64,000 nucleotides of DNA from Gemmatimonadota bacterium (lineage in GTDB: Bacteria; Gemmatimonadota; Gemmatimonadetes; Palauibacterales; Palauibacteraceae), in the NCBI GenBank assembly GCA_965116475.1, contig OZ220691.1, positions 2,976,001 through 3,040,000 of the forward strand, read 5' to 3'. The first letter of the stretch is position 1, and each line of letters starts with the position of its first letter. A model generated the notes under the pieces. The model made no database searches, was not told where the DNA came from, and was given only the letters and a program-made list of their open reading frames with translations. Below are positions 3,087 through 22,533 of this stretch, piece after piece. The position numbers and the translations under genes are program-made.

Positions 3087-4820
3087 ATGTATGCGGGTCG
3101 CACGATCCGGACCCACGCCTCCCGCGCGGCGCTTGCCTCGGCGCTCGCGATCATCGCGCTCCCGGCGCAGCCGGTCGCCGCGGACCCGGCCCAATCCCGC
3201 GAGCCTCCCGCATCTCCTGACGCCGCCTCGGCGATGAAGATGGCGCGCGACGCTCAGCGCGCATTCGAGCACGTCCGGCGCCGCAACTTCCCGCGCGGTC
3301 CCCTGGTCAATCCGACATGTGGCGAGGGGATCGGGCGCTTCTGCCTCGTCGAAGGGTGGGACGACGACGATTGGGATCCGGTCCCCGAGGAGCCGGAGGT
3401 CGTTGAGGAGCGGCTCGCCTTGATCGCGGTCCTCGACAGCGCGGCCCGGGTCATTCCCGGCGACGAGTGGCTCACGGGGCAGCGCGTCGCCTACCGGCTG
3501 GAGGCCGGCCGCGCCGGCGAAGCGCTCGCGCTGCTGGAAGCCTGCCGCGCGGCGAGTGCGTGGTGTGCCGGGCTGGCCGGCTTCGTCCTTCAGGAGAGTG
3601 GTCGCTACGGAGAGGCGGAGGCGGCCTTCGAGCGCGCGCTCGACCGCATGACCGACGAAGAGCGCTGCGGCTGGACCGAACTTGGGCCCGTACTCGACCG
3701 CCGGACGCGCGGCCGCTACGAGCGCTTCGTCTGCGGAAGCTCGCCGCGGCGTGCCGTGGAGCGCTCGTTCTGGCACCTTTCCGACCCGCTCTGGCTCGTG
3801 CCCGGCATGGAGCGGCGCTCCGAGCACCTCGCCCGCCGCGTCCGCGCCGCGCTCCAGGCCGACGCCGCGAGCCCGTGGGGGATGCGGTGGGGCGACGATC
3901 TCACCGAGATCACGCTGCGCTTCGGCTGGCCCGCCGGCTGGGAGCGGGCGCGCCGCCGGTTCGTCGGCTCGCGTACGGATGAGATTGTGTGGTCGCACCG
4001 CCTGCCGGGGGCGCAGCGGTTCACCGTGTTGCAGTTCGGGTCTGCGGACGACGGGCCGCTCTGGGACCTGGATGAGCCGGAGGGCCGCACGAGCTGGGCG
4101 CCGGCCTTCGGCAAAATCGCGCAACTTCCTCACCAGGTGGCCGGCTTCCGGCGGGACGGCCGTCGGCGGATGGTCGCGGCGTTCACGTGGCCCGACTCCC
4201 TGCCGTCGTGCGATCTCAAGAGCGGACTTTTCCTCGCCGACGCCCACGGCGTGACGGCCTCGCACACCGCGCGGGGCGGCGGGCCGCTGGCGGTCGCGGA
4301 GCCCCGGGGACTCGCCCCCGCGACGCTCGTCGGCGTCGAAGCGCGCTGCGAAGAGGGACCCGGGGCCGCCCGCGCGCGGATGCCCATCGCCACGGGCCAT
4401 CCGCGGCTGTCCGATATCCTCTTGCTGGACGCCGGCGGCGCCTCGCCCCCCACGCTGTCGGAGGCGCTGGTCCGCGCGCGGGGCGACCGCACCGCCCGGG
4501 CGGGCGAGACCCTGGCCGTCTACTGGGAGTGGTACGGCTCCCCGGATGCCGCCGGCGCCCTCCAGGTCACCCTGTCGCTGGCGCGGGAGGGGAAGGGGTT
4601 CTGGCGCCGTGCGCTCGAATGGAGCGGCCTCGCCAGCGACGACACCGAACGGGCCGGCATCCGCTGGCTCGAGGGGACGGCGAATCCCGCGGCCGAGGGC
4701 CGCACCGTCGAACTGCGCCTCCCCATGCTCGACGAGGGGCGGTATCGCCTCACGCTCAAGGTCGTTTCCGCGACGGACGGAGCGGCCGAGTCCAGCACCG
4801 ACATCGAAATCAAGGAGTAG
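3087..4820 (+). CDS. Secreted TPR-like / GWxTD-like protein
   Basis: Signal peptide, helical TPR-like segment, FWHLSDPLWL...EHLARR...LRFGWP segment, beta-rich C-terminus; follows the upstream gene by 6 nt. Confidence 0.6.
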   Translation: MYAGRTIRTHASRAALASALAIIALPAQPVAADPAQSREPPASPDAASAMKMARDAQRAFEHVRRRNFPRGPLVNPTCGEGIGRFCLVEGWDDDDWDPVPEEPEVVEERLALIAVLDSAARVIPGDEWLTGQRVAYRLEAGRAGEALALLEACRAASAWCAGLAGFVLQESGRYGEAEAAFERALDRMTDEERCGWTELGPVLDRRTRGRYERFVCGSSPRRAVERSFWHLSDPLWLVPGMERRSEHLARRVRAALQADAASPWGMRWGDDLTEITLRFGWPAGWERARRRFVGSRTDEIVWSHRLPGAQRFTVLQFGSADDGPLWDLDEPEGRTSWAPAFGKIAQLPHQVAGFRRDGRRRMVAAFTWPDSLPSCDLKSGLFLADAHGVTASHTARGGGPLAVAEPRGLAPATLVGVEARCEEGPGAARARMPIATGHPRLSDILLLDAGGASPPTLSEALVRARGDRTARAGETLAVYWEWYGSPDAAGALQVTLSLAREGKGFWRRALEWSGLASDDTERAGIRWLEGTANPAAEGRTVELRLPMLDEGRYRLTLKVVSATDGAAESSTDIEIKE

Positions 4821-16604: not shown

Positions 16605-16749
16605 GTGTGGCGTCTCTCCCCTGCCGCGGACCGCCGGGACCGGCGCGACTCCCGCCCTCCGGGCGAACCTTCTACGTTTGCGCCTGCCGAATTTACCCGG
16701 AGGCCGCGAACTCCAGCAACGAGCCGCAGGGCTCGTGAGGACCTGACGC

Positions 16750-18192
16750 TTGGATCCCCGTCTGACCGAGGGCCGCAACCCTCGTACACGCGCCATCGAC
16801 CGCGCGGACAGCGCGACGATCGTCCGCATGATACAGGCGGAAGATCGCGCCGTGCCGGAGGCCGTCGCCGCGCAGGCGTCGGTGCTCGCACGCGTCATCG
16901 ATGATGTCGTGGAGCGCTTCCGTCGGGGCGGTCGTCTCGTCTACGTCGGTGCGGGGACGAGTGGCCGCCTGGGCGTGCTCGACGCGGCGGAGTGTCCGCC
17001 GACGTTCGGCGTAGCCCCGGACCTCGTGCAGGCGATCATTGCGGGGGGCTCCGGCGCGCTCGTGCGGAGCGCGGAGGGGGCGGAGGATTCCCGGAACGGG
17101 GGAGCCGAGGCGGTCCGGACGTTCGGCGTGTCGGCCGCGGACCTCGTGCTCGGGATCGCGACGTCGGGGACGACGCCGTACGTCCTCGGGGCGCTGGCGG
17201 AGGCGGCGTCGCGCGGCGCGGGAACCGCGTTTCTCGGCTGCACCGCACCGTCCTCGGAGGTCGCGGAACTCGCGGACCACCTCATCCTGCCGCTCGTCGG
17301 GCCCGAGGTCATCGCCGGTTCGACGCGCATGAAGGCGGGGACGGCGACCAAGCTTGTGCTCAACACGATCACCACGGGAGCGATGATCCGCAGCGGCCGC
17401 GTGTTCGAGAACCTCATGGTCGACCTGCGGGCGCGATCGGCGAAACTCGTCGACCGCGGGCTCCGCATTTTCGTTGCGCTCACGGGGACATCGCGCGAGG
17501 AGGCGCGCCGCGCGCTGATCCGCACCGGCGGCGCGGTGAAGACGGCGCTTGCGATGCACGCGCTGGGCGTCGACCGCGCCCTGGCCGAGCGATACCTCGA
17601 CTGCGCGGACGGCTTCCTGGGCCTCGCGGTCGAGCGCTTCGGCGGCGCGGAGCGTCCGTGTTACGGCGGCTACCCGGCGGCGCCGGGCCGGCCAGACGGC
17701 GCGGCGCTGCTCGCGCGGCTGGGCGCCGCGCCGGCGCGGCTCGCCGCCGCGCGCGCGGCGGGCGCCGCGGCCGAGGCGGAGGGGCAGCGCATCGCGGCGC
17801 GCGGAGCCGCGTGGACGCCGGGCCAGCACGCCGCGCACCTGGCGGACTTCGAGCGGAGCGCCGTGCGGCCGCGAGTCGAGCGGTGGCTCGCGGCCGCCGA
17901 CTCGAAAGGGTCCCTCCCCACGTTCGACGACTGGACCGCGAACGCCCGCGCGCCCGCCCGCGGCTTCGAGACCGGAGTGGCCGGTTTCTCCGCGGAAAGG
18001 GCGGTCACGGTGGCGGCGGTGGCCGATGGTCCGGAGCCGGTCGCGGCGGCCCTCTCCCGCTGCGCACGCATCGGCTCCGAGACGTTGACGCTGTATCAGT
18101 TTCTGCGGGGCGTCGCGCAGCACGATGCCGCGCACGAGATGAGGTTGCAGGAGCGCGTGCACCCGGCACTGCTGGCCGAGGCGGACCGGTGA
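16750..18192 (+). CDS. murQ: N-acetylmuramic acid 6-phosphate etherase with C-terminal DinB-like domain
   Basis: GAGTSGRLGVLDAAECPPTFG and GPEVIAGSTRMKAGTA motifs; about 180 extra C-terminal residues. Confidence 0.92.
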   Translation: MDPRLTEGRNPRTRAIDRADSATIVRMIQAEDRAVPEAVAAQASVLARVIDDVVERFRRGGRLVYVGAGTSGRLGVLDAAECPPTFGVAPDLVQAIIAGGSGALVRSAEGAEDSRNGGAEAVRTFGVSAADLVLGIATSGTTPYVLGALAEAASRGAGTAFLGCTAPSSEVAELADHLILPLVGPEVIAGSTRMKAGTATKLVLNTITTGAMIRSGRVFENLMVDLRARSAKLVDRGLRIFVALTGTSREEARRALIRTGGAVKTALAMHALGVDRALAERYLDCADGFLGLAVERFGGAERPCYGGYPAAPGRPDGAALLARLGAAPARLAAARAAGAAAEAEGQRIAARGAAWTPGQHAAHLADFERSAVRPRVERWLAAADSKGSLPTFDDWTANARAPARGFETGVAGFSAERAVTVAAVADGPEPVAAALSRCARIGSETLTLYQFLRGVAQHDAAHEMRLQERVHPALLAEADR

Positions 18193-19316
18193 CCCTCTGG
18201 ATCGGCGTGATGTCGGGCACTTCGCTGGACGGCATCGATGTCGCCGTCGTCGAGACGGCGGGAGACCGCGAGCGGCCGGCGGACTGGCGCGTCGTCGCCT
18301 TCGAGACGGAGAGCTACGACCGCGCCGTGCGCGGACGGATCGCCGGCGCCATCACCTCGGGGAGCGCCGCGGCGATCTGCGCGCTCGACTTCGAGCTGGG
18401 CGAGCGGATCGGTGCAGCCGTGAACCGGACGCTGGCTTCCGCCTCGCTCCGGCCGGCCGATGTCGAAGCCATCGGCAGCCACGGCCAGACCGTATGGCAC
18501 GAGCCGCCCGCGGGCGCCCGGGGAGGGTCGACGCTGCAACTCGGCCAGGCCGCGGTCATCGCCGAGCGCACCTCGTGCGCGGTGGTGTCGGACTTCCGCG
18601 TGCGGGACATGGCGGCGGGCGGGGAAGGCGCGCCCCTCACGGCCTATACCGACTTGCTCCTCTTCCGCGCACCGGAATCGCGCGCGATTCAGAACATCGG
18701 CGGCATCAGCAACGTGACGGCGCTCCCCGCCGAAACCAGCGGGGCGACGCCGCAGGCCTACGATACCGGTCCCGGGGTCGTGCTCATCGATGGGGCGGTC
18801 GAGTGCCTTACGGAAGGGCGATCGCGCTTCGACCGCGACGGAGGGATGGCGCGGCGCGGGGCGGTGAGCGAAGACGCGCTCTCCGATTGGCTGAGCGATC
18901 CCTTCTTCCGCCAGCCCCCGCCCCGGTCGACGGGACGCGAGCGCTTCTCGCGGGACCGGCTGCTGGAATGGCTGCGGCGCCACGCCACGCTTTCGCCCGA
19001 AGACACGATCGCCACCCTGACGGAACTCACCGCGCGCACGATCGCGGACGCCTATCGATGGATCGAAGAGCGGCCTGCGGCGTGCTATCTCGGCGGCGGC
19101 GGAGCCCGGAACCCGGTGCTCGCAGCGCGAATCGAGCAGCTGCTGGATCCGATGCCCGTCCGCGACCTGTCCGCCCTCGGCCTCGACGCGGATGCGCGCG
19201 AGGCCGTGGCCTTCGCGCTCCTGGCGAGACAGCATGTGCTCGGGTATCCCGCCAACGCGCCGTGGGCCACGGGGGCGAGCGGTCCCCGCCTGCTCGGAGT
19301 GCGGACCGCCGCGTGA
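18189..19316 (+). CDS. anmK: Anhydro-N-acetylmuramic acid kinase
   Basis: IGVMSGTSLDGID, GSHGQT, NIGGISN, DTGPG and STGRE motifs; GTGA overlap. Confidence 0.95.
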   Translation: MTLWIGVMSGTSLDGIDVAVVETAGDRERPADWRVVAFETESYDRAVRGRIAGAITSGSAAAICALDFELGERIGAAVNRTLASASLRPADVEAIGSHGQTVWHEPPAGARGGSTLQLGQAAVIAERTSCAVVSDFRVRDMAAGGEGAPLTAYTDLLLFRAPESRAIQNIGGISNVTALPAETSGATPQAYDTGPGVVLIDGAVECLTEGRSRFDRDGGMARRGAVSEDALSDWLSDPFFRQPPPRSTGRERFSRDRLLEWLRRHATLSPEDTIATLTELTARTIADAYRWIEERPAACYLGGGGARNPVLAARIEQLLDPMPVRDLSALGLDADAREAVAFALLARQHVLGYPANAPWATGASGPRLLGVRTAA

Positions 19317-20773
19317 CCCGGTCCGACGTGGACCCCGCCCGGGTCGTCATCGAGGCGCTCCGGCTCGACCGCTGGTCTCCGGCTGAAGTGGAGAGGCGTG
19401 CGGACCGGGCGCTCGCCCTCGGCGTGGGGGGGTTCATCCTGTTCGGCGGCGAAGCGGAACGCGTCGGTCGTCTGGTCGAACGGATCCGCGACGACGCGGC
19501 GTGGCCGCTCTGGATCGGGGCGGACCTCGAACGGGGCGCGGGTCAGCAGATCCGGGGCCTGATCGAGTTGCCCCCGCCCGCCGCGCTCGCGGCCCGCCCG
19601 CGTCCCGATGCCGCCGTCGTGGCGGCGGGTCGCGTCACCGCCCGGGAAGCGCTCTCCATCGGGATCAACTGGGTGATCGCGCCGGTGCTGGATCTGGATG
19701 CGGAACCTGACAATCCGATCATCGCCACGCGCAGTTTCGGCGCGGACCCGCGGCGGGTCGCGGAACTGGGCGGCCGCTGGATCGACGCCTGCCAGTCCGC
19801 CGGCGCCGCGGCGTGCGCGAAGCACTTTCCGGGTCACGGCAGGACGACGGAGGATTCGCATATCGGACTCCCCTCCATCGACGCCCCGGCCGGGCTTCTG
19901 GAGGAGGATCTCGCGCCTTTCGCGGCGGCGGCGGACCGGGTCGCCAGCGTGATGGTGGCGCACGTCGCGTATCCGGCACTCGGCGGCGAGCGGGCGGCGA
20001 CGGTGGAGCCGAATATCGTCTCGGGGCTCCTTCGCGGACGGCTGGGCTTCGAAGGGGTCGTGACCACGGACGCCATGATCATGGGCGGCGCCGGCCCCGA
20101 CGATGCAGGCGCCGCCGTCGAGGCGGTCGCCGCGGGGTGCGATCTCATCTGCTATCCCGGCGATGCCGGCGCGACGGTCGCGGCGCTGGCGCGGGCCGCC
20201 GAAGACCCGCGCTTCGCCGCCAAGCTGGAGGAGGCCTCGATCCGGTCGGCCCGCAACTGCCCGTCCTCCGCGCGGGCATCGCGGCCGGAGTTCGAGTCGG
20301 TCGCCTTCGCGCGCGATACGATCGCGGGCGATCCGGAGATCCTGCGCGGCTGGACGCCGCGGGCACCGACGCGGGTCGTCGGCGTGTCGGACGACCCGGA
20401 TGTCGGGCCCCCGGCCGGCCGCGCCGGAGCGTTGGGCACGATCGTCGCCGACGACTTGCGCGCGGCCGGCTGGCGGGTCACGGACAGCCCCGACGCCGGA
20501 CAGTGCATCGTCGTGCTCGCCGCGACGCCGCGCGGCTGGAAGGGCCGGGGTGCGCCCGCGGCCGAGGTCGTCGAGCGGACGCGCGCCCTCGTCCACTCCG
20601 CCCGCCGCGGTCTCGTCGTACTGCTCGGCCACCGCCGCTGGCTCGAGGTGCTCGGCGTCCCCGGCATCTGCGCGTGGTCCACCGAGACCGTGATGGAACG
20701 GGCCGCCGCGGACTGGCTGCGCGTCGCAGCCGGCGCGGCGGCGGGAACAGGGCCCGCCGGGGTGGACCGCTGA
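19313..20773 (+). CDS. nagZ: GH3 beta-N-acetylhexosaminidase
   Basis: ADLERG, RSFG, KHFPGHG..DSH and TTDAM motifs; GTGA overlap. Confidence 0.88.
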   Translation: MTRSDVDPARVVIEALRLDRWSPAEVERRADRALALGVGGFILFGGEAERVGRLVERIRDDAAWPLWIGADLERGAGQQIRGLIELPPPAALAARPRPDAAVVAAGRVTAREALSIGINWVIAPVLDLDAEPDNPIIATRSFGADPRRVAELGGRWIDACQSAGAAACAKHFPGHGRTTEDSHIGLPSIDAPAGLLEEDLAPFAAAADRVASVMVAHVAYPALGGERAATVEPNIVSGLLRGRLGFEGVVTTDAMIMGGAGPDDAGAAVEAVAAGCDLICYPGDAGATVAALARAAEDPRFAAKLEEASIRSARNCPSSARASRPEFESVAFARDTIAGDPEILRGWTPRAPTRVVGVSDDPDVGPPAGRAGALGTIVADDLRAAGWRVTDSPDAGQCIVVLAATPRGWKGRGAPAAEVVERTRALVHSARRGLVVLLGHRRWLEVLGVPGICAWSTETVMERAAADWLRVAAGAAAGTGPAGVDR

Positions 20774-22533
20774 GTCCGGTCGACTGGTGGATCGTCGCGA
20801 TCTATCTCGCCCTCACGTTCGGTGTCGGCCTGTGGCTCTCGCGCCGGGCCCGCGGGAGCATCGTCGACTTCTTCGTCGGCGGGCGCGCACTGCCGTGGTG
20901 GCTCGCGGGCACGTCGATGGCCGCGACCACGTTCTCGGTGGATACGCCGCTCTATGTCTCGGCCCTCATCGCGCGCCGGGGCATCGCCGGCAACTGGGAA
21001 TGGTGGTCCTTCGGCCTCTCCCACCTCCTTCTCATCTACCTCTTCGCGCGTCTGTGGCGCCGCGCCGGAATCGTCACGGACGTGGAACTGACGGAACTTC
21101 GCTACGGCGGCCGCCCCGCCGCCGTCCTGCGGGCCACGCGCGCCTTCCTGTTCGCGGTTCCGATCAACTGCATCTCGATCGGCTTCGTGATGCTGGCCAT
21201 GCGCAAGGTCGTCGAGGCTCTCGGGCTCCTCCCGGACCTGTCCGGCTGGATGCCGGGAGACGAGCGCCTGTGGGCCGTCGTGGCCCTCTCCATCTTCGTG
21301 CTCGCCTACGCGAGCATCGCCGGGCTGTGGGGTGTCGTCGCGACGGACTTCTTCCAGTTCTTTCTCGCGCTCTTCGGAGCCATTCTCGTGGCCGCCTTCG
21401 CCCTGGCGGAAATCGGGGGGATCGCGGAACTCAAGGCGCAACTCGCGGCGGCGGGGCGGAGCGATGCCCTGGGGATGGTCCCCCGGCCGGGCTCCGAAGC
21501 CCTCCCGTTCGGCACCTTCCTCGCCTACCTCGGCATACAGTGGTGGGCCTTCCGCCGGTCCGACGGCGGGGGCGAGTTCGTGCAGCGCCTCCTCGCCTGC
21601 CGCACCGAAGCGGACGCGGAGCGCGCTGCCTGGTGGTTCGTGTGGCTTCACTACGTCGTCCGCGCGTGGCCCTGGGTGCTCGTCGGACTCGTGGCCGTCG
21701 TCGTCTTCCCGGATCTGGCCGATCCCGATCTGGGGTACCCGATGCTGATGCTGCGCTACCTTCCCGCCGGCCTCCTGGGACTCGTCGTCGCATCGTTCTT
21801 CGCCGCCTTCATGTCGACCGTGTCGACGCAGATCAACTGGGGCGCGAGCTATCTCGTGAACGACCTCTACGCCCGCTTCGTCGACCCGGACGCCTCGTCC
21901 GCGCGACTCGTCCTGCTGGGCCGGCTCGCTTCGGTCTGCATCGTTGCGGCCGCGACGGCGGCGGCGTTCTTCGCCAATGACATCGGGGCGCTGTTTCGTT
22001 TCATGATCGCCATCGGCACGGGGCCGGGGGCCGTGCTCATCCTGCGCTGGTTCTGGTGGCGGGTGAACGCCTGGGCTGAACTCGCCTCCATGCTTGCCGG
22101 CTTCGCCATCGCGCTCTGCTCCTATCTCCCGGCCTTCGGTGCGATGGAGTTCGGGACGCGGCTCGCGCTCACCGCCTTCGGTTCGGCGGCGGTCTGGCTT
22201 CCCGTGATGTGGTTCACGCGCCCGGAGGACGAGGCGACGCTGCTGGCGTTCTATCGACGGGTGCGGCCCGCCGGGCCGGGCTGGCGCGCGGTCCGCGAGC
22301 GCGCGGGTGTTTCTCCCGACTTCCCCCTCCGCGAAGCGCTCCTGCGGACGGCGGGGGCGACGCTGCTCCTGTTCGGGGCGATGTTCGCCCTCGGAGGCAT
22401 GCTGCTGCTCGAGCCGCGAACCGCCACCCTTTCCGCCGCCGTGGCCGTTCTGGGCGGCGCCGGGCTCTGGATCCTGCGTCGCTCCTCTCCCCGGAGAAGC
22501 CCCCGGAAAGCGCTTCACCGCTCTCGGCGCTGA
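20770..22533 (+). CDS. Sodium:solute symporter family protein
   Basis: FFVGGRALPWW.AGTSMAATTFSVDTPL and AAFMSTVSTQINWGASY motifs; many TMs; CTG start inferred from the CTGA overlap. Confidence 0.88.
   Translation: MSPVDWWIVAIYLALTFGVGLWLSRRARGSIVDFFVGGRALPWWLAGTSMAATTFSVDTPLYVSALIARRGIAGNWEWWSFGLSHLLLIYLFARLWRRAGIVTDVELTELRYGGRPAAVLRATRAFLFAVPINCISIGFVMLAMRKVVEALGLLPDLSGWMPGDERLWAVVALSIFVLAYASIAGLWGVVATDFFQFFLALFGAILVAAFALAEIGGIAELKAQLAAAGRSDALGMVPRPGSEALPFGTFLAYLGIQWWAFRRSDGGGEFVQRLLACRTEADAERAAWWFVWLHYVVRAWPWVLVGLVAVVVFPDLADPDLGYPMLMLRYLPAGLLGLVVASFFAAFMSTVSTQINWGASYLVNDLYARFVDPDASSARLVLLGRLASVCIVAAATAAAFFANDIGALFRFMIAIGTGPGAVLILRWFWWRVNAWAELASMLAGFAIALCSYLPAFGAMEFGTRLALTAFGSAAVWLPVMWFTRPEDEATLLAFYRRVRPAGPGWRAVRERAGVSPDFPLREALLRTAGATLLLFGAMFALGGMLLLEPRTATLSAAVAVLGGAGLWILRRSSPRRSPRKALHRSRR

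Follow-up and report, generated by a model that had tools for sequence, protein, structure and literature searches.

An in-frame fusion of a MurQ-type etherase with a DinB/YfiT-like four-helix domain in uncultured marine Gemmatimonadota

A stretch of 64,000 nucleotides from a Gemmatimonadota bacterium (assembly GCA_965116475.1, contig OZ220691.1, positions 2,976,001 to 3,040,000 of the forward strand; this whole stretch is referred to as the window hereafter) carries a gene in which MurQ, the N-acetylmuramic acid 6-phosphate (MurNAc-6P) etherase, continues in the same reading frame into a second domain of the DinB/YfiT type. The bacterium belongs to the family Palauibacteraceae of the order Palauibacterales (names according to PMC10469786). 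The fusion gene is located at 16750..18192 on the plus strand and encodes 480 amino acids (aa) between a TTG start and a TGA stop. Because the frame is interrupted on its upstream side by an in-frame TGA (16744-16746), the TTG at 16750 is the only possible start of the fusion; a Shine-Dalgarno-like GAGGA, read from the sequence, is found 8 nucleotides 5′ of it (16737..16741, plus strand). At the other end, the stop codon (18190-18192) overlaps the GTG start of anmK at 18189 in the form GTGA. The original prediction, which had been made from the letters alone, described a single frame running from the MurQ core into the tail and ending in this overlap. Both the list of open reading frames (ORFs) and the sequence confirmed it, and the two strings that it had cited from the tail, WTPGQHAAHLADFE and TLYQFLRGVAQHDAAH, are present in the translation.

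Three further genes of the cluster follow on the plus strand: anmK, encoding anhydro-MurNAc kinase (18189..19316, GTG start; Pfam AnmK, 330.5 bits); a gene for a NagZ-like glycosidase of glycoside hydrolase family 3 (GH3; 19313..20773, exact start not fixed; Pfam Glyco_hydro_3, 190.5 bits); and, as the last gene, one for a transporter of the sodium:solute symporter family (20803..22533, with its start upstream of 20803 and not fixed; Pfam SSF, 111.8 bits). The symporter is a candidate importer of MurNAc-type sugars. A HhH-GPD repair gene lies upstream of the fusion gene on the opposite strand. As a separate observation, the symporter is far better conserved than its enzyme neighbours (97–99% vs 82–94% identity among close relatives of the genus), and its identity is 76–86% even in distant members of the family.

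The G+C content reaches 0.84 at 17600-17899, and long frames arise by chance in such DNA, one of them being an opposite-strand ORF of 489 aa. The fused frame might accordingly be suspected to be an artefact, namely, the product of a lost stop codon, of an assembly error in this 84% G+C stretch, or of reading through a non-coding spacer. Four kinds of evidence refute this suspicion. One is that the same frame recurs in dozens of independent assemblies, single-contig genomes included. Among the 21 loci of the genus that were read (the window's own included), 19 have one uninterrupted frame of 477–481 aa; the exceptions are G010, with one in-frame TAG, and G013, which is cut by a contig end. Another is that the ratio of nonsynonymous to synonymous substitution rates (dN/dS; Nei-Gojobori, 12 pairs) is well below 1, being 0.19–0.40 for the tail and 0.10–0.16 for the core; the tail is under purifying selection. 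The third is that contigs from four public sequencing runs cross the junction without any frame-breaking insertion or deletion. Support by reads across the junction had been proposed as a check, and its outcome is favourable: contigs of run X1 (possibly the source sample) tile 17300-18400 with 0 differences, a contig of run X2, which belongs to another study, bridges the junction (17300-17685) with 8 substitutions and without gaps, and relatives in X4 and X5 have only indels that keep the frame (+1/−1 and −2/−1, respectively). The last is that the appended domain folds confidently in prediction and matches a known family, as described below. The probability of an artefact is thus negligible, and that the gene is a real, conserved fusion is virtually certain.

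Two side observations concern the frames at this locus. Other-frame and opposite-strand ORFs of 130–770 aa overlap the fusion gene (including one at 16693-18162 of the window, minus strand), and they are what DNA of about 75–84% G+C yields by chance. The TAG of G010, whose genome is a single contig, falls at residue 282, within the MurQ module (L013, G010:C1:2297000-2302000), and the gene is intact apart from it; a pseudogene, an error of sequencing or a genuinely split gene could each account for it.

For the comparisons that follow, three alignments were used: A1, of 14 tails; A2, of 18 tails from two families; and A3, of 17 full-length fused proteins. The MurQ module (residues 1-294; 16750..17631) was recognized from the family profile, the solved structure 4s12 and the invariant motifs. 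NCBIfam describes residues 4-295 as a complete MurQ: the TIGR00274 score of 341.2 bits exceeds the cut-off of 302, with residues 5-294 covering positions 2-290 of the 291 in the profile, and NF003915 scores 365.7 bits. The nearest solved MurQ is 4s12 (298 aa; E 1.7e-75), residues 5-292 aligning with chain residues 10-296. All 17 fused proteins of A3 share the stretches AAECPPTFG (with E81) and AEGAED (with E109, E112 and D113) without variation, and these four residues align with identical residues of 4s12. Hadi and colleagues are said to have described, in 2008, the glutamates of the ECPPTFG and EGAED motifs as the acid/base catalysts of MurQ. Judged from its sequence, the N-terminal module is an ordinary MurNAc-6P etherase. 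The only core position that separates the 17 fused from 10 plain MurQ proteins is residue 189, alanine in the former vs threonine in the latter; it is encoded at about 17314-17316 and lies within the conserved stretch GPE..(A/T)GSTRMKAGT. A single position of this kind is too slight a difference to be interpreted.

The MurQ module is followed by a junction segment (residues 295-317; 17632..17700) with the conserved pattern Y305-x2-Y308-P309-x2-P312, in which A1 shows no variation at Y305 and Y308, and the conservation of Y308 and P312 in A2/A3 is 90% or higher. The four-helix bundle occupies 17695..18165, as delimited by the structural models, VIA-align and Pfam DinB_2. When the tail alone was scanned, DinB_2 (PF12867) scored 25.6 bits against the gathering cut-off of 24.8, and in a scan of the genome the tail scored 26.8 bits. 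Of 1.84 billion representatives searched with the A1 profile, 241 proteins matched at E ≤ 1e-3; 12 of the matches outside the fused forms and fragments were scanned, and all 12 carry Pfam DinB_2 domains, which occur singly, in tandem or alongside other domains. In this reciprocal direction, DinB_2 proteins are matched with E values as low as 1.6e-16. Against solved structures, the A2 profile matched BH0186 (2rd9) at E 7.4e-10, YfiT (1rxq) at E 5.9e-9 over residues 15-171 of its 178, and TTHA0303 at E 5e-5. In the ESM Atlas, residues 300-480 matched only DinB_2 clusters (0.86–0.87, to be taken as a lead). Concerning relatives, the nearest unfused ones of both tail types are proteins of 310–330 aa with two tandem DinB_2 domains (P0044-P0047, P0094), and one tandem-DinB_2 relative also carries a tRNA-editing domain.

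The predicted structure agrees with these matches. The AlphaFold model of the tail (m9d04da7eefd5; predicted local distance difference test, pLDDT, 80.1; predicted template modelling score, pTM, 0.80) consists of four long helices and a small hairpin; the predicted bundle helices are residues 316-344, 357-380, 406-425 and 448-467, and the hairpin is 438-447. Foldseek placed 2rd9 and 1rxq at the top (probability 1.00, E 7e-3 to 2e-2, template modelling score 0.53–0.66). Among 48,161 chains compared by VIA-align, YfiT (1rxq) reached Z 15.1 (root-mean-square deviation 3.3 over 149 residues), although a Z of 15 is, by the tool's own note, barely above the chance level for helical bundles; 2rd9 reached Z 12.8. 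Ranks 1-23 are chains of the DinB/YfiT superfamily throughout, including mycothiol S-transferase, mycothiol-dependent maleylpyruvate isomerase, Staphylococcus aureus BstA and the EgtB/OvsA/SenA domains. We base the assignment on the sequence evidence and this unbroken run of family members rather than on Z alone. The characters by which the family is recognized, namely, an up-down-down-up bundle of four helices (~150–180 residues), a histidine triad and a match to the DinB_2 profile, were all found in the tail. Pfam on the tail, the profile searches and the predicted fold agree on the DinB/YfiT-like four-helix domain of the original prediction, and the tail is almost certainly a domain of this type.

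The original prediction had also pointed to an H...HxxxH triad in the tail, and this is well supported. H363 (codon CAC, 17836..17838), H458 and H462 (in H458-D459-A-A-H462, 18121..18135) align with H67, H160 and H164 of YfiT, respectively (HMMER alignment, hand-counted), and R375, R417 and W355 align with its R78, R122 and W59. The three histidines are invariant in the 18 tails of the two families, which are just 19–28% identical to that of the window; the full set of invariant columns is W355, H363, L364, R375, R417, G442, Q450, H458, D459 and H462. Such invariance at 19–28% identity is, at the sequence level, the pattern of a kept active site. In Bacillus subtilis, H67, H160 and H164 are the sole fully conserved residues among the BstA-H proteins, H67 being named as a ligand, and all eight BstA-H proteins are bacillithiol transferases whose activity is abolished by ethylenediaminetetraacetic acid (PMC5815605). 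The tail would presumably bind a metal through its triad.

The occurrence of the fusion was examined at several taxonomic levels. Within the genus, 24 other genomes were searched for the tail; 20 gave a match, and the 4 without one lack MurQ as well; in all 20 genus genomes that hold MurQ, it is fused. In the sister family, nine of the ten loci read contain fused genes of 472–479 aa with a highly diverged tail, the tenth locus being masked, and a search with the MurQ core gave open frames of about 480–650 aa. The tail of the window, used alone as the query, matched none of 16 sister-family genomes, which is a miss of sensitivity, since fused diverged tails exist there. The full-length A3 profile, run over 401 genomes from the phylum, detected MurQ in 374. 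The matches covering the whole profile (n = 25) come from the window's family (23, its own genome included) and the sister family (2 of 2), while in G426, of the same genus, the match is limited to positions 1-333. Of the matches listed from other families, 124 in all, none extends past profile position 351 and most end at 292-303; 234 further matches score below the listed ones. The best E per genome was 1.2e-152 or weaker in the plain-MurQ families and 5.1e-181 or better for the fused genes; the plain-MurQ rows include four unpublished genomes (G217, G193, G134, G096), on which alone no claim rests. A pattern scan based on A1 in 185,579 species genomes gave 38 loci, fused in every case and with a full tail in 36, whose record titles read Gemmatimonadota, Gemmatimonadales, Candidatus Palauibacter or 'uncultured bacterium'. 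A search for the same architecture in other genomes, suggested at the outset, thus located it in both of the order's families that were searched, and no re-separated pair was seen among the loci read. As far as these sequences tell, one order of uncultured marine Gemmatimonadota has the fusion as a conserved trait of these two families.

The gene order around the fusion may provide a clue to its origin. The order murQ-tail, anmK and GH3 is kept in 38 of 38 loci, and the symporter gene comes next wherever the locus reaches that far. With plain murQ, anmK comes directly after murQ in 9 of 10 loci, and no separate tail-like ORF was found within about 3 kb of murQ in these 10 loci of other families (A2 profile). 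On this evidence, the domain resembles a piece inserted between murQ and anmK, an event that probably took place in an ancestor of the order. This insertion-like appearance would also suit an active bacillithiol transferase of general detoxification that is unrelated to MurQ: a DinB gene may have inserted by accident at the boundary of murQ and anmK and, once its own start had disappeared, become part of a neutral fusion. Genes of this kind are plentiful, the genome of the window having 8 other DinB_2 matches above the cut-off, and DinB_2 domains are fused to many unrelated partners (tRNA_edit, SnoaL, JAB, HAD). However, two families have retained the fusion and none of the loci read shows its parts separated again, a specific interface between the domains is predicted and the junction residues are conserved, and no tail-like gene was found in four genus genomes without murQ. 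We consider a neutral fusion of this kind to be rather improbable.

Whether the fusion arose once was examined with the tails of the two families. The hidden Markov model of each family's tail scores some unfused tandem DinB proteins above the tails of the other family, and in a quick unconstrained tree of 105 domains the two tail groups were not joined. When the two groups were forced together, the log-likelihood of the tree improved by 13.5 units (p-AU 0.684, approximately unbiased test); the unfused rows of the tree were chosen with an f1-type profile and are a biased set. A single origin is thus compatible with the test, which neither rejects nor demonstrates it. As for losses, five genus genomes (G014, G015, G021, G024, G328) of 85–96% completeness have no MurQ match, and a tail search in four of them found none; the whole murQ-tail module seems to have been lost together in some species.

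The spatial relationship between the two modules was examined by modelling. The full-length model (m934dd245c2d8) has a pLDDT of 84.5 and a pTM of 0.82, the latter being high for two freely moving domains. When residues 1-296 and 297-480 were co-folded as separate chains, the score was 0.72 (runs 0.72, 0.75 and 0.58), and the best control gave 0.00; this mark is reached by 116 of 157 solved complexes and by 2 of 215 mismatched pairs, counts that hold only approximately here because an alignment of our own was supplied. At least 84% of the contacts are common to the runs, and the pLDDT of the partner is 80 or more. The predicted interface comprises residues 58-59, 227-235, 253-262 and 272-285 on the MurQ side (its C-terminal helical part) and residues 302-308 (the YxxYP junction), 314-319, 346-351 and 453-475 on the tail side, the last forming in the model one face of helix 4 together with the C-terminal segment; MurQ residue 285 is predicted to contact 306-308. 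The tail is thus predicted to be fixed against the C-terminal helices of MurQ rather than loosely tethered.

Such firm docking, via the outer face of helix 4, the C-terminal segment and the junction, would be expected of a tail that is not an enzyme and that stabilizes MurQ or its dimer, or tunes MurQ by metal or redox state, with the triad holding a structural or sensing metal. The dN/dS of the tail above that of the core, the loss of most of the domain by one lineage that kept MurQ, and the barely remodelled core, in which only A189 vs threonine differs systematically, point in the same direction. Nevertheless, R375, R417, W355, D459 and Q450 are invariant at 19–28% identity, which is more like an active site than a scaffold, and eight of the eight B. 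subtilis members tested are active transferases (PMC5815605). A structural or regulatory role is, in our estimation, somewhat unlikely.

If the tail is a transferase, a suitable thiol is probably at hand. The genome of the window encodes BshA (528.7 bits), BshB1 (207.4 bits) and BshC (319.5 bits), all above the curated cut-offs, while GshB and Glu_cys_ligase, of glutathione synthesis, were not found in it. Within the order, BshC was detected in all 73 high-quality genomes and in 114 of 121 genomes overall. The Gemmatimonadetes are also listed among the predicted bacillithiol makers (PMC6282198). Bacillithiol is thus the likely co-substrate in that case. Analogy with the nearest solved relatives, YfiT (BstA) and BH0186, together with BshA, BshB and BshC, gives context to the idea of a thiol transferase raised in the original prediction; whether the tail is a catalytically active one appears evenly balanced. 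Thiol use by the tail, and its substrate, are what we infer.

The amino-sugar genes were examined in the same way. NagA (TIGR00221) was not found above the cut-off in the genome of the window, where the best score is 33.6 bits vs 225.65. This might suggest that the tail is a thiol-independent, metal-dependent hydrolase or isomerase of amino-sugar metabolism, for example, a deacetylase of N-acetylglucosamine 6-phosphate (GlcNAc-6P) that replaces NagA, and YfiT and BH0186 were indeed deposited as putative metal-dependent hydrolases. However, NagA is above the cut-off in 2 of 401 phylum genomes and is equally rare with plain or fused MurQ, and the characterized members of the fold listed here are thiol transferases, thiol-dependent isomerases and sulfoxide synthase domains, not hydrolases. 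The replacement of NagA by the tail was rejected, as the complementary distribution that it implies was not seen, NagA being scarce in the plain-MurQ families too, and the hydrolase or isomerase explanation as a whole is very improbable. It was also observed that the NagA-like matches in family f10, which is without MurQ, are only weaker ones; MurQ in 374 but NagA in 2 of the 401 genomes raises the question of how these bacteria use the GlcNAc-6P made by MurQ.

MurQ converts MurNAc-6P to GlcNAc-6P and D-lactate (PMC6262408), and NagS, a relative of MurQ, dehydrates GlcNAc-6P to 6P-chromogen I and thereby starts a toxicity pathway (PMC12680351). With these reactions in mind, we propose that the appended module may be a metal-dependent bacillithiol transferase, whose substrate would be an electrophile arising during the MurQ reaction or alongside it. 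The most plausible electrophile would be a 2,3-unsaturated sugar phosphate, either as the open-chain enal or in the ring form, 6P-chromogen I, and the module might act as a safety valve that is part of the enzyme itself, or might form a branch off the cell-wall recycling pathway. As for the enal, MurQ reportedly eliminates lactate to give an α,β-unsaturated aldehyde and then adds water, as Hadi and colleagues are said to have described in 2008. This proposal of a bacillithiol transferase is the best of the explanations considered here, but it is doubtful as it stands. Its more specific form, in which the tail would add bacillithiol to the 2,3-unsaturated aldehyde of MurQ, with the conjugate as a true intermediate or as the coupled quench of a toxic by-product, is unlikely.

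Several observations weigh against the proposal of a bacillithiol transferase or against parts of it. The family match of the tail is marginal when the whole protein is scanned, DinB_2 scoring 20.8 bits, below the cut-off, and NCBIfam has no family for the tail at E ≤ 1. In the docked model, the triad residues are outside the predicted interface; the docking speaks for a fixed arrangement, not for communication between the two active sites or for a metal site that faces the active site of MurQ. BshC is above the cut-off in 81 of 101 phylum genomes sampled (tallies that include the unpublished G096 and G134); bacillithiol genes are thus phylum-wide, plain MurQ occurs in most other Gemmatimonadota, and the thiol context therefore does not explain a fusion limited to one order. 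The tail is also less constrained than the core, evolving two to three times faster. In one lineage (L068/G426; P0028, 7 member sequences), an in-frame deletion of ~120 residues leaves tail residues 134-187 and HD has become HG, while MurQ, anmK, GH3 and the symporter are intact (L068 match 4025-4195); the tail module is therefore dispensable in that lineage. The faster evolution and this deletion count against an essential role. The tails of P0030 and P0031 are frameshifted and that of P0087 is scrambled; all three are from metagenome assemblies, and the defects may be real or may be assembly errors. Taken from the sequences, the fusion is clade-limited and partly dispensable. With regard to the overlapping ORFs mentioned above, P0030 and P0031 end in an alternative frame of that type.

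Both modules belong to known families, and their pairing is new to the literature searched. The original prediction knew of no description of the fusion; likewise, our search on MurQ and DinB found none, although subscription journals and domain-architecture databases may hold a mention. By a term search, the Palauibacterales paper contains no mention of MurQ, peptidoglycan, DinB or bacillithiol (PMC10469786), and public records that carry a name label these proteins plainly as MurNAc-6P etherase.

The natural substrates of DinB/YfiT-type thiol transferases are unknown, and a conserved fusion is a signpost toward one: it points to a domain working with MurNAc-6P cleavage in at least one bacterial order. 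If the proposal is correct, cell-wall recycling would have a reactive by-product that cells must manage, and this would tie in with the toxic unsaturated sugar phosphate made by the Streptomyces relative of MurQ. If bacillithiol addition itself is true, a direct enzymatic step would for the first time link a low-molecular-weight thiol to peptidoglycan recycling, and a YfiT-type transferase would have a natural substrate assigned to it, also for the first time. If the link fails, the fusion is still a lineage-specific gain of a domain in widespread uncultured marine and sponge-associated bacteria.

The fusion can finally be compared with known systems, the closest of which is MurQ itself. It resembles MurQ in the full-length match above the curated cut-off and in the kept ECPPTFG and EGAED motifs, and its location beside anmK and a GH3 gene resembles MurQ recycling clusters. 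A canonical MurQ has about 300 aa, as the original prediction had stated and as was found here: the solved MurQs are 298–306 aa long and the plain genes of ten loci in other Gemmatimonadota families encode 299–307 aa, whereas the fusion has 480 aa, its additional ~185 residues forming the second domain. NagS of Streptomyces is alike in that MurQ-type chemistry releases a 2,3-unsaturated sugar phosphate, which is harmful there (PMC12680351); it differs in belonging to a separate clade of single-domain SIS enzymes, found in the Streptomycetaceae only, with no known thiol step.

For the tail, the sulfoxide/selenoxide synthases EgtB, OvsA and SenA and the mycothiol-dependent maleylpyruvate isomerase (fold matches at Z 7.3–9.7) differ from the fusion in that their DinB domain is N-terminal and is joined to FGE-like or other domains, in no case to a SIS-domain sugar-phosphate enzyme; nevertheless, they are a precedent for a DinB-type domain inside a larger enzyme, where it helps to bind the metal and the thiol or selenol substrate. 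BH0186 of Bacillus halodurans (2rd9), the best sequence match among solved structures, shares the HD..H motif of helix 4 with the tail, but it is free-standing and, as an uncharacterized YfiT-like putative metal-dependent hydrolase, adds no function. YfiT of B. subtilis (BstA; 1rxq) is likewise free-standing, with 178 aa and ~17–19% identity to the tail, and its S161 corresponds to D459 there. However, it has the same four-helix bundle as the tail, its triad and R78, R122 and W59 are matched, and it is a bacillithiol S-transferase from an organism whose bacillithiol pathway is likewise encoded in the genome of the window.

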